Shown: positions 1 through 35,421 of the stretch, piece after piece
Position numbering within the stretch: position 1 is the first letter of the stretch
Layout of the letters: the number at the start of each line of letters is the position of its first letter
Assembly: GCA_964549615.1 (NCBI GenBank)
Contig: CAZJVP010000101.1
Coordinates: forward strand, 1 to 64,000
Reading direction: 5' to 3'
Origin: an uncultured Thermococci archaeon
GTDB taxonomy: Archaea > CAYQAE01 > CAYVLA01
DNA length: 64,000 bases
Notes under the pieces: generated by a model
Databases searched by the model: none
Told to the model about the DNA's origin: nothing
Seen by the model: only the letters and a program-made list of their open reading frames with translations
Program-made: the position numbers and the translations under genes

Positions 1-293
1 ATCGTGGGCTCGGAGATCTCCCTGACCACTATGGCTCCTCCCTTCTTGAGCAGGGACACCTGCCTGTTGGTGCGAAGGTAGGTCTTCCACAGCCAACCCG
101 TCTCGGTGATCGTTGTGTTGTCGCTGAAGTGGAACTCGTGAACCTTGCCGAAGGCATAGTGTGAGGTCAGGATTCCCTCGTGGAGGACCCTCTCCTTCGC
201 CCAGAGCGGCCTGGTCACCGAGATCGTCAGCGCGATTCCCGCGGCGAGGAGGAGAACTGCGATCAATGTGTACGCCTGATCTTCCTTGCTCAA
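1..293 (-). CDS. Hypothetical protein with N-terminal TM/signal anchor (partial, runs off left edge)
   Basis: Manual translation from TTG at 293 gives MSKEDQAYTLIAVLLLAAGIALTISVTRPLWAKERVLHEG..., open to position 1. TATA-like ATTTAA on the minus strand at 318-323. Confidence 0.6.
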   Translation of the reverse strand, partial: MSKEDQAYTLIAVLLLAAGIALTISVTRPLWAKERVLHEGILTSHYAFGKVHEFHFSDNTTITETGWLWKTYLRTNRQVSLLKKGGAIVVREISEPT

Positions 294-472
294 CGGCGGG
301 GCGAGGCAGGCCGCTCCTTAAATGTCTCACGGGCGCGAATGGGGCCGTCTAAACGATCTTCTACACGGCCCTGCGCTTTTTCATCACCCCTGTTTATCAA
401 GAATGGGCAAAATTCTACAACTCGGGCCGAAAATGGCCGGCCCCGCCCTACAATTCAACGCATTCCGATATC

Positions 473-481
473 TTTTTAAGT
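473..481 (+). promoter_or_regulatory. Archaeal TATA box (TTTTTAAGT) for the putative large ncRNA
   Basis: AT-rich box in GC-rich context, about 30-35 nt upstream of the first paired segment (515) of the structured region. Confidence 0.55.
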
Positions 482-758
482 AATCGTGGTAATTATCGGA
501 CGCTTTGGTCTGCAGGGCAGACAGGAAGCGGACATCACGGGAAAACGGTTCCAGGCCCCTCCGGGGGTCCCGGGATCGGTGATGAACGCCCGTATGTTCT
601 CGGGCCTCGTGTTCGAGGATGTGCGGGTGCATGGGCCATGGGATTGATCCGATGCATTCGGTTTTTTCCCCGGATGCGACGGAGAAGATGGTCTTCCCGC
701 AAGGATCTCGCCCCGTTGAGGCGTGACCTATCCCGGAAATCCCGCGAAGGATGGGTTA

Positions 759-839
759 CAGGGGTGAGCAAAGGAGCAGGCCTCCAGACCCAAGCCTCAA
801 GAGAGGGCTGGTGGCCTGGTCTTTCCGCTTCCCTGCAAA
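759..839 (+). repeat. Copy A of an ~80-nt structured internal repeat
   Basis: GGGGTGAGCAAAGGAGCAGGCCTCCAGACCCAAGCCTCAAGAGAGGGCTGGTGGCCTGGTCT...TCCGCTTCCCTGCAAA aligns with 1070-1152. Confidence 0.85.
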
Positions 840-1069
840 CCTGCGGGCCGGAAGCGGAAAGGAGGCGGATGTCGCCCGGAATGGACGTCAGGCTTCGGCC
901 TGATGTCGGCGCTCGACGCGTCCGTGCGAAAGCACGACGCGTGAGGCCGCTGGGAGCGACTCGCTTTTCCCGAGGTTCCGTCGGGAAAGGCGAAGAACGG
1001 CTGGCATCCCGTAAAGGGACTTGCCCCGCTGAGGAACGGAGCGTCCGGAACCTCCCATAAAGGACGCCT

Positions 1070-1152
1070 CGGGGGGTAAGCAAAGGAGCAGGTTTCCAGA
1101 CCCGATCCTCAAGAGAGGATGGTGACCTGCTCTGTGTCCGCCTCCCCGCAAA
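1070..1152 (+). repeat. Copy B of an ~80-nt structured internal repeat
   Basis: GGGGTAAGCAAAGGAGCAGGTTTCCAGACCCGATCCTCAAGAGAGGATGGTGACCTGCTCT...TCCGCCTCCCCGCAAA aligns with 759-839. Confidence 0.85.
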
Positions 1153-1451
1153 TCGGGCCCGCATGACCTTTTCTTCGTTGCGCCCACGCTGTGTTGAACC
1201 ATCGAGGTGCCTGCGCGGACCTACCGTGTTCCTGACCCCATGCCTGGGGTCGAACGCGGGTCGAGGATCTTGCCGGAAGGCGAGACGAAGGCGACTTGGG
1301 CCTGCTTTCCGGTTCTTCCCATTTCCCGCCTCTGAGCTCCTGCCCAACCGTACACATTCCCATCGGTAGACAGTTTGTTGCGGTCCATGAAACCCCATCG
1401 GGGTCGAAGGCTCGAGAGATTTTTCAGCCCGTGGGCTGGCGTTGGGCCGAG

Positions 1452-2324
1452 TTGCCGATCGAATTCGAGGTTCTCAAGGAATGCGCGGCAGAGCTGTACT
1501 GGACGGCGCTGAGGCTCCTTCCTCGCGACGTTCTGGCATGCCTGGAGAAGGCCCAGCGTTCGGAGGATGACCCGCGGGCATCATCGATACTGGGATGCAT
1601 GCTTGAGAACGCGAGGCTGGCGCGGGACGCATCCCAGATGCTGTGCCAGGACAGCGGCATACCGGTTTTCCTCGTCCGCGTGGGAAGGGAGTGCACCTTT
1701 TCGTGCGATCCCGCGGAGGCTCTCTCGGCTGGGGTGGAGAAGGCGACGAGGCAACACTCCATCAGGGCCAATTGCGTCGACGTCCTGAAAAGGACGAACT
1801 CCGGGACGAATCGAGGCAGAGAGTACCCGATCGTGCATCTCTTTGTCGGCGGTGAGGGTCGTGGAGCAGAGGTGACGCTGCTGGCAAAGGGGTCGGGTTC
1901 GGAGCATCGAAGCAGGCTCGGGATGCTGAACCCAATCCAGGGTCTGGAGGGTGCAAGGGAGTTCATCCTGAGGGCGGTTGCCGAGGGCGCACCCTTCTCC
2001 TGCCCGCCTGTGGTTGTGGGCGTGGGGCTTGGGGGTTCCTTTGACCTTGTTGCTCTGCTCTCAAAGAGGGCTCTTGCCCGGCCATTGGGAGAGCACAGCG
2101 GGGTCCGCGAGTTGGCCATCCTGGAGCAAGAGCTCTTGGATGACGTGAACTCGCTCGGGATCGGACCAATGGGCCTCGGAGGAAGGTCGACGGCACTCTG
2201 GGTGTCGGTGGAGGCGGCCGACACCCACATCACGTGCAACCCAGTGTCGGTCAACCTCGGGTGCTGGGTCCACCGGAGGGCGACGGCGGACGTGACGGAG
2301 GAAGGGTTCAGGCTTCGGAGCTGA
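1452..2324 (+). CDS. Fe-S hydro-lyase (class I fumarate hydratase / L-tartrate dehydratase) alpha subunit
   Basis: Motifs LCQDSG, KGSGSE, CPP...GVGLGG, GIGPMGLGG, C-terminal CWVHR. TTG start at 1452 inferred. Confidence 0.9.
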   Translation: MPIEFEVLKECAAELYWTALRLLPRDVLACLEKAQRSEDDPRASSILGCMLENARLARDASQMLCQDSGIPVFLVRVGRECTFSCDPAEALSAGVEKATRQHSIRANCVDVLKRTNSGTNRGREYPIVHLFVGGEGRGAEVTLLAKGSGSEHRSRLGMLNPIQGLEGAREFILRAVAEGAPFSCPPVVVGVGLGGSFDLVALLSKRALARPLGEHSGVRELAILEQELLDDVNSLGIGPMGLGGRSTALWVSVEAADTHITCNPVSVNLGCWVHRRATADVTEEGFRLRS

Positions 2325-2950
2325 TGGGTTTGATCGAGCTTCGCACTCCTCTCAGCGCCCGGCGGGTGAGATCGCTCGAAGTAGGGGACGAGATCTGCAT
2401 CTCGGGCGCGTTGTACTCGATGCGGGACCAGGCGAGCGCAAGGATCCTGAACCTCCTAAAGGAAGGCAAACCCCTCCCGGCGGACCTCGCGGGAAGCGTC
2501 GTCCTCCACGCGGGGCCCGCGCTGGACAGGCACGAGGGCCGCCTCAGAGTTGTCTCCATAGGCCCGACGACCTCGGCCAGGATGAACTCGGTCATGCCCG
2601 ACCTCATCCGGCTTTTGAAGATCAGATGCGTTATCGGGAAGGGCGGGATGGGGGACGATGTCCTCAGGGCGATGGCGCAGACAGGGTGCGTGTATGCCTC
2701 GGGCATAGGAGGCTGCGCGGCACTATACAGTCGCGCGGTGAAGGCGGTAGGCCGGGTGGTGTGGGAGGAGATGGGTCCGGAGGCCCTGCACGAGCTTGAG
2801 GTTGAGAAGTTCGGGCCGCTCATCGTAACGATGGATGCCCGGGGGCGAAGCCTTCACAAGGAGGTCTCAGGGCGCACGGGCAGGAGCCTGAAGAGGATAC
2901 TTGCCCGAAGAAGGGCCGGCGGTGCGGCGAGCACGTCCGGGCGGAGTTAG
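2324..2950 (+). CDS. Fe-S hydro-lyase (fumarate hydratase / tartrate dehydratase) beta subunit
   Basis: Motifs HAGP, GPTTSARM, IGKGGM, GGCAAL, MGPEA. ATG overlaps the alpha-subunit stop (TGATG). Confidence 0.92.
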   Translation: MGLIELRTPLSARRVRSLEVGDEICISGALYSMRDQASARILNLLKEGKPLPADLAGSVVLHAGPALDRHEGRLRVVSIGPTTSARMNSVMPDLIRLLKIRCVIGKGGMGDDVLRAMAQTGCVYASGIGGCAALYSRAVKAVGRVVWEEMGPEALHELEVEKFGPLIVTMDARGRSLHKEVSGRTGRSLKRILARRRAGGAASTSGRS

Positions 2951-35346: not shown

Positions 35347-35421
35347 GGGCTCGTGGCCTAGCTAGGATAAGGCGCCAGGCTTCGGACCTGGATATCGCGG
35401 GTTCAAATCCCGCCGGGCCCA
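35347..35421 (+). tRNA. tRNA-Arg: tRNA-Arg (anticodon TCG), intronless, CCA not encoded
   Basis: Acceptor stem GGGCTCG/CGGGCCC, anticodon arm CCAGG-CTTCGGA-CCTGG, T-arm GCGGG-TTCAAAT-CCCGC. TTTAA box about 25-30 nt upstream. Confidence 0.95.

Follow-up and report, generated by a model that had tools for sequence, protein, structure and literature searches.

Near the start of the 64,000-nucleotide stretch of archaeal DNA analysed here (the window) lie two similar sequence copies that look like parts of a structured RNA, raising the question of what this RNA is and what becomes of it. A preliminary description of the DNA had recognized two copies of a domain (759-839 and 1070-1152) with identical blocks and three co-varying stems, and had proposed either a tandem ligand- or protein-binding module analogous to tandem glycine aptamers or a symmetric multimerization unit. 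The evidence assembled below indicates that the region from about 502 to 1175 (+ strand) is very probably a stand-alone non-coding RNA gene from which two paralogous circular RNAs, of 316 and 292 nt, are produced.

The repeat itself is readily delimited. A repeat search of the window identifies 761-806 and 1073-1118 as a direct repeat of 46 nt with 89% identity, and MAFFT alignment of the surrounding segments (740-860 with 1050-1172) gives a mean column identity of 84%, with all of the blocks quoted as identical in the preliminary description indeed identical. In a search of 745-860 against its own 3.2-Mb genome, where the window forms the start of contig C101, the second copy was recovered with E=1.3e-15, and the seven other matches all had E values of at least 0.3. 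The repeat is a genuine internal two-copy duplication, neither dispersed nor a chance resemblance. However, the unit is longer than the ~80 nt originally assigned to it: the covariance model R1 matches both copies over its full length, and the repeat unit is a module of ~150 nt with the following features.

691-843 (+): conserved module copy A, matched by R1 at 153 bits and containing the first copy of the preliminary description (759-839)
691-843 (+): elements of module copy A, namely a GNRA-type hairpin and a helix formed by CUCGCCCC and GGGGUGAG that encloses GUUGAGG and a variable hairpin
691-843 (+): further elements of module copy A, namely AGCAAAGGA, a hairpin with CCAG/CUGG and CCUC-loop-GAGG, and a C-rich tail
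1004-1156 (+): conserved module copy B, matched by R1 at 145 bits and containing the second copy of the preliminary description (1070-1152)

Exactly two R1 modules, ~312 nt apart, are present in every complete homologue. In a tree of the module copies, constructed without two 5'-cut rows, the A and B modules lie on opposite sides of one branch (support 78/93), and module identity as A or B changes once on the tree. This separation by a single branch indicates that the duplication is older than the family.

The gene has a narrow distribution. The DNA of 480-1300 has a match in each of the three remaining genomes of the family, 69-82% identical across window positions ~502-1154, and no match in 37 further genomes, the sister family among them. 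When 185,579 species genomes were scanned for a motif, only three MAGs matched, all titled Candidatus Hadarchaeota archaeon; the same scan yielded eight stretches in JGI metagenomes and no match among viral contigs. The preliminary description had suggested searching archaeal genomes with a covariance model, and such a search, with R1 over 151 archaeal genomes, did find homologues, but its full matches were limited to the four family genomes, together with six weak matches of 14-22 bits. Three of the weak matches (L044-L046) were rejected as homologues for want of the core, L046 resembling coding sequence; the others (L047-L049) are partial matches. The sister family genome G004 has no R1 match anywhere, and none upstream of its fumarase gene. 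Homologues are confined to a single archaeal family, whose MAGs bear the label Candidatus Hadarchaeota, and to the eight metagenome stretches, and the divergent metagenome copies L040 and L037 are without their 5' halves. Some genomes carry two copies of the gene. In the same-genus MAG G001, the fumarase-linked copy is split over the contig ends C95 (end) and C191 (start), as L015 and L010 with an overlap of ~55 nt, probably because a second copy (C24) broke the assembly.

Comparison with known RNAs supports the statement in the preliminary description that the element matches no known riboswitch or ribozyme. At the gathering score, Rfam recognizes no family in the window except one tRNA gene (35347-35421). 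Below threshold, the best match within 300-1500 attains 17.6 bits where the gathering score is 218; in the same segment, the SSU and LSU rRNA models and those of OLE, ROOL, GOLLD and raiA stay unmatched even at E values up to 10. RNase P RNA and SRP RNA were rejected as identities, given that both are encoded elsewhere in the same genome (G000; 174.5 and 186.1 bits) and neither model matches the locus. A circular C/D box sRNA was likewise rejected, the Rfam C/D match scoring 17.2 bits against a gathering score of 50 and the size being wrong (C/D RNAs measure ~50-70 nt and carry a conserved C box, RUGAUGA, and D box, CUGA). A C-box- or K-turn-like GUGAUGA does occur at 580-586, inside the first of the two circular RNAs, in this genus only; other genera have GUGGUGA or GUGACGA. 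Literature searches returned no description of the RNA, though circular-RNA catalogues drawn from metatranscriptomes may nevertheless already list its sequences.

The non-coding gene spans ~650 nt, from about 502 to 1153 on the + strand, and 330-1430 contains no convincing ORF. In alignments of the homologues, conservation begins sharply ~26 nt 3' of a TATA-like box and ends at ...CCCCGCAAAUC.

473-480 (+): TATA-like box TTTTTAAG, ~26 nt upstream of the start of conservation, with transcription start predicted near 502

The box TTTTTAAG is retained in nine of the 10 alignment rows that have a 5' flank, with CTTTTATA in its place in G002c29. Runs of T follow directly 3' of the RNA (T9 in L040, T5 in L037, T7 in L014 and TTTTCTT in the window). 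By the textbook rules for promoter spacing and termination in archaea, the box and the T-runs are likely the promoter and terminator of the gene. Protein coding was rejected on the grounds that the ORFs overlapping the RNA look random and that homologues differ by indels of 1, 2 and 4 nt. An endless reading frame around either circle was also rejected, the longest stop-free runs being 178 codons (A) and 170 codons (B).

The RNA consists of two domains of ~300 nt, each with a long closing stem, variable hairpins and one copy of the conserved ~150-nt module. RNAalifold predicts 190 pairs from five full-length sequences, 72 of them with compensatory changes. In a 211-pair consensus for eleven sequences, pairing amounts to 88.3% as against 81.7% after shuffling, 87 pairs show compensatory changes and none of 500 shuffles reaches any of the five measures; partners slid out of register are 37-49% paired, a control that flatters the structure in that it was derived from the same alignment on which it was tested. 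The 27 modelled pairs of the module are 94.9% paired, 11 with compensatory changes, across 22 module copies (21 distinct) in an alignment fitted to the model. The covariation bears out the earlier proposal of selection on RNA structure, and the two domains are highly structured, with many covarying helices and a GNRA-type hairpin.

The three stems originally proposed fare differently. The first (CAGGCC/GGCCTG in one copy and CAGGTT/GACCTG in the other) is confirmed as part of a 13-pair helix that is 93.7% paired, with seven pairs changed on both sides. The second (AGCCTC/GAGGGCT and ATCCTC/GAGGAT) survives as a 4-bp CCUC/GAGG hairpin that hardly varies; however, the longer register proposed for copy 1 (AGCCTC/GAGGGCT) fails, since it clashes with the invariant CCAG/CUGG helix. 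The third (CAGGGG/TCCCTG and CGGGGGG/CTCCCCG) finds no support, being 78.7% paired compared to 77.5% after shuffling, with 90 of 500 shuffles reaching the observed value and slid partners doing equally well. Instead, its segment GGGGUGAG pairs with the upstream CUCGCCCC (eight pairs, 95.5% paired, four with compensatory changes) and its C-rich tail forms the closing stem used in processing (consensus helices 1-3 and 18-19). A candidate pseudoknot between UGAGGN and NCCUCA is possible: it is 96.7% paired, but just one position varies, two mismatches occur and an extension of a competing hairpin is better in some copies. Across eight full-length sequences, no conserved base pairing of at least 6 nt between domains A and B was found.

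RNA data bear on the fate of the two domains. Of 24 runs listed, from 16 studies, 21 are metatranscriptomes (microbial mats and hot springs), holding 0.54-0.61 of the sampled words. When window positions 1-2600 were compared with four metatranscriptome runs from four studies, no run yielded more or fewer than two contigs, one of 346 nt and one of 322 nt. The 346-nt contig covers 523-838/839 and the 322-nt contig 858-1149. Their rotation differs from run to run, and no contig has a fixed alternative end. A joint leading from 838 back to 523 (316 nt) is seen in three runs; in run X18 its place is taken by loose ends that match, the sequence of one running on into the other. The joint leading from 1149 to 858 (292 nt) is present in all four runs and is ambiguous by three bases (AAA on both sides), making it equivalent to 1151 to 860. 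No homologue contains either joint sequence in its DNA. Each contig is 30 nt longer than the segment between its joint positions (316+30 and 292+30), as would be expected of an assembler working on a ring with k=31, the word length used by the assembler. These contigs define the following molecules.

523-838 (+): circular RNA A, 316 nt, represented by a 346-nt RNA contig in four of four runs
860-1151 (+): circular RNA B, 292 nt, represented by a 322-nt RNA contig with the joint in four of four runs; helices 18 and 19 are 100% paired

The evidence consists of assembled contigs and not raw reads, and as such establishes that the joined sequences exist in RNA libraries while fitting a closed ring and a permuted linear RNA equally well. 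No contigs fell on 1-522 or 1150-2600, which does not signify absence of RNA, as contig depth and uncovered flanks are unusable as evidence. The strain represented in the four runs differs from the window at six positions. Two of these, G554C and C570G, are predicted partners in the hairpin 546-578 and amount to a natural compensatory double change in all four runs.

The positions of the joints point to a known processing pathway. The bulge-helix-bulge (BHB) motif, a 4-bp helix flanked by two 3-nt bulges, is recognized by all archaeal splicing endonucleases and also occurs in rRNA processing stems (as described in part of PMC7714728). One such motif encloses each domain of the present RNA. BHB-A is formed by 507-532 with 824-849 and is canonical in all eight distinct full-length homologues; its 5' strand comprises an outer helix (507-516), GCAG (517-520), the bulge ACA (521-523) and an inner helix (524-532). 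BHB-B is formed by 842-870 with 1136-1163, its 5' strand comprising an outer helix (842-852), GCGG (854-857), the bulge AAA (858-860) and an inner helix (861-870), and its 3' strand an inner helix (1136-1145), CCGC (1146-1149), the bulge AAA (1150-1152) and an outer helix (1153-1163). The remaining strands and the segments between and beside the circles are distributed as follows.

502-522 (+): 5' leader, containing the 5' strands of the BHB-A outer helix (507-516) and central 4-bp helix (517-520), and bases 1-2 of the bulge ACA (521-523)
824-849 (+): 3' strands of BHB-A, with the inner helix at 824-832, CUGC at 833-836, the bulge AAA at 837-839 and the outer helix at 840-849
839-859 (+): spacer of 21 nt between the circles, containing the 5' outer helix strand of BHB-B (842-852) and its central helix strand GCGG (854-857)
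1152-1175 (+): 3' trailer, containing the 3' strand of the BHB-B outer helix (1153-1163) and, at 1169-1175, a T-rich stretch that is likely an archaeal terminator

Both motifs are retained in all homologues, with predicted rings of 306-316 nt (A) and 288-303 nt (B). Pairing in the BHB-A helices is 97-100%, and compensatory changes occur there (helices 1 and 2 at 100% and 96.9% in the 11-sequence alignment). In BHB-B, 11 of 11 sequences retain the central helix (GCGG/CCGC) along with both 3-nt bulges, and the inner helices are 100% paired. Its outer helix, also recovered as inverted repeat I16 (842-852 with 1153-1163), is only 3-4 bp long in most homologues and in this genus needs an unpaired A853. 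In this genus it also overlaps the outer helix of BHB-A; the two motifs cannot therefore form simultaneously, and by implication either processing of A comes first or the folds alternate.

The joints seen in RNA coincide with the BHB bulges at base resolution, joint B being ambiguous by three bases. Circle A starts at base 3 of the 5' bulge and ends at base 2 of the 3' bulge, so that both of its ends follow base 2 of a 3-nt bulge, which is the canonical position of cutting in tRNA introns. Canonical cuts in BHB-B give 860-1151, a molecule of 292 nt, matching that observed. The genome G000 encodes both enzymes of this pathway, with matches to the splicing endonuclease domain (tRNA_int_endo; PF01974) above cut-off at two loci and to RtcB (PF01139) at one locus (607 bits). 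Given joints in conserved BHB bulges and the presence of both enzymes, the precursor is most likely cut by tRNA-splicing endonuclease and ligated by RtcB. The endonuclease loci (C88:58736-59533 and C90:41769-42002; L050 and L051) comprise one frame with two catalytic-domain matches and a second locus, suggesting an endonuclease of composite type. In the alignment, the predicted ligation junction reads GCAAAGG(A/G) in every homologue and for both rings. The same word occurs at the conserved internal AGCAAAGGA junction (768-776 and 1079-1087), and each ring carries it twice.

A sequence of events can be proposed on this basis. The archaeal promoter would drive synthesis of a ~650-nt precursor of two anciently duplicated domains, each closed by its own BHB stem, in the arrangement found around 16S and 23S rRNA in archaeal rRNA operons. 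The tRNA-splicing endonuclease would cut after base 2 of each 3-nt bulge, and RtcB would join the ends of each excised domain to yield rings of 316 nt (523-838) and 292 nt (860-1151). Ligation would close the inner stem with a 7-nt loop, each time recreating GCAAAGG. The final molecules presumably stay closed, and circularity would be expected to protect them in a hot habitat. Taken together, the gene is real, conserved and expressed and represents a new family, and an established pathway very probably turns its transcript into a pair of large paralogous rings.

The closest parallel is archaeal pre-rRNA, in which long processing stems contain BHB motifs; cutting there releases 16S and 23S rRNA, which are circularized (as outlined in parts of PMC7714728, PMC3326292 and PMC12918454). 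In both cases, two large structured RNAs follow one another on a single transcript. Each of them is surrounded by a stem of leader with spacer or of spacer with trailer, in which a 4-bp helix separates two 3-nt bulges, and each RNA is released, has its ends joined and is recovered in quantity from RNA libraries. Unlike rRNA, the present RNAs have no SSU or LSU match, measure ~300 nt, are paralogues of each other and occur in one family, sometimes with two gene copies. Archaeal tRNA introns and other BHB circles, for example the stable tRNA-Trp intron and the 5' UTR intron of HVO_1309, share the same motif, presumably the same enzymes and a ring as product (from portions of PMC3326292 and PMC7714728). 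However, the BHB intron rings covered by those portions are tens of nucleotides long and lie within another functional RNA or mRNA, whereas the present rings are the conserved structured product and it is their flanks that look dispensable. Glycine riboswitches resemble the locus in having two homologous structured units (the tandem aptamers) side by side on one primary transcript. They differ from it in that their units measure ~100 nt as against ~300 nt, and that each unit of the present RNA is excised as its own molecule. The present RNA also lacks an expression platform, is separated from the next gene by a terminator-like T-run and has no Rfam match. OLE, ROOL, GOLLD and raiA are large ornate RNAs of bacteria. 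Like them, the present RNAs are hundreds of nucleotides long, rich in covarying helices, narrowly distributed and highly expressed, with no function assigned; unlike them, they are archaeal, processed to rings at BHB motifs and internally duplicated, and they show no similarity to the Rfam models of these bacterial RNAs.

With respect to function, the covarying helices, the GNRA-type hairpin, the constant co-occurrence of the paralogues and the fact that RNA libraries yield them again and again are consistent with a stable RNA that acts in trans or serves as an RNP scaffold. The rings are most likely stable trans-acting RNAs rather than a cis-acting riboswitch, a role that we infer from these properties. 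Each ring might offer its copy of the conserved module to a protein partner, or for a tertiary contact, that both rings have in common, as part of an RNP or scaffold, and a role of this shared module in multimerization, as the preliminary description had also considered, or as a scaffold is possible. More specifically, and tentatively, the rings may be RNA subunits of an unrecognized, abundant archaeal RNP or ribozyme, forming a new class of large circular RNA made by an rRNA-operon-like pathway, with A and B the fused descendants of an ancestral homodimeric RNA. Known archaeal circular RNAs include tRNA introns, rRNA intermediates, C/D and H/ACA RNAs and minor forms of RNase P and 7S RNA (listed in part of PMC3326292). 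Here, a dedicated gene appears to exist solely for the production of two large, ornate, conserved rings by the tRNA/rRNA splicing machinery. If confirmed, this would widen the substrate range of splicing endonuclease and RtcB, provide a natural case of gene duplication giving two paralogous structured RNAs from one precursor, and make the rings an accessible target for structure determination and the search for partners in a lineage about which little is known.

Other explanations of the joined sequences can be weighed against this reading. The circles may be processing intermediates only, reopened elsewhere as happens to archaeal 16S rRNA, such that the mature RNAs are linear and possibly permuted. 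Circular pre-rRNA intermediates arising at BHB stems are well documented (see parts of PMC7714728 and PMC3326292), and the contigs would look alike for a closed ring and a permuted linear RNA; even so, the explanation is rather unlikely, as all four assemblies are self-closing with varied rotations and no fixed alternative end, an argument limited by its reliance on contigs, and no further conserved motif for cleavage came to light within the rings. It is highly unlikely that the rings are discarded introns and that the functional product is the ~60-nt RNA formed by joining leader, spacer and trailer. BHB splicing does normally join the flanking pieces too (PMC7714728, in part), but sequence conservation and nearly all of the covarying helices are internal to the rings. 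In the flanks, conservation is restricted to what the BHB stems require, the trailers vary from one homologue to another, and it is the rings that assemble from RNA. That the joints are an artefact of assembly or strain, such as a tandem DNA duplication in the strain of the RNA runs, is barely credible: although the joints are known from contigs of RNA runs, the same two were found in four runs of four studies and fall on conserved BHB bulges at base resolution. Furthermore, the repeats common to both places are ~9 nt long, judged too short to close the assembly graph, and the order is linear in all nine assembled DNA copies that span both domains.

The genomic neighbourhood bears on a further alternative, namely that the locus is a long cis-regulatory leader, akin to a tandem riboswitch-like sensor, of the fumarate hydratase/glycerate kinase operon downstream.

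1431-2950 (+): class I fumarate hydratase alpha and beta genes (context), matched by the Pfam families Fumerase and Fumerase_C

The gene for fumarase alpha, identified by Pfam, is the next gene in the same direction after the main RNA copy at six of six loci (the window, L021, L011, L014, L037 and L042), a linkage that the production of two rings leaves unexplained. This alternative is nonetheless very unlikely. T-runs stand directly 3' of the RNA, and a conserved T-rich promoter-like word of its own precedes the fumarase start, which in the window is separated from the RNA by a gap of ~280 nt. A riboswitch would be expected always to occupy the 5' leader of the gene it controls; three of the nine distinct loci are further copies located elsewhere, with L013 and L012 beside other genes and L040 facing a convergent gene. 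In the sister family a fumarase gene is present but the RNA is not, the two domains leave the precursor as separate molecules, and no Rfam riboswitch matches. Much the same evidence tells against the proposal in the preliminary description of a tandem ligand- or protein-binding module like that of the glycine aptamers: the two domains are separate, each with its own BHB stem and its own joined molecule in the RNA data, and the gene has its own TATA-like box, a T-rich end and additional copies beside unrelated or convergent genes.

Several minor features of the surroundings were also recorded. Between the RNA and the promoter-like word before fumarase (GAGATTTTTCAG, about 1415-1426), the window contains ~250 nt of extra non-coding sequence (1157-1410), which is absent from close metagenome relatives. 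Segments of this stretch complementary to the RNA (851-876 with 1290-1315 and 982-998 with 1312-1328) were not significant by blastn, the best measuring 17 nt with E=0.5. The neighbours upstream of the RNA gene differ in every genus, unlike the conserved fumarase operon downstream. In genome G003 (L011, 2461-3102), the gene divergent from the RNA encodes a protein with a B12-binding domain.
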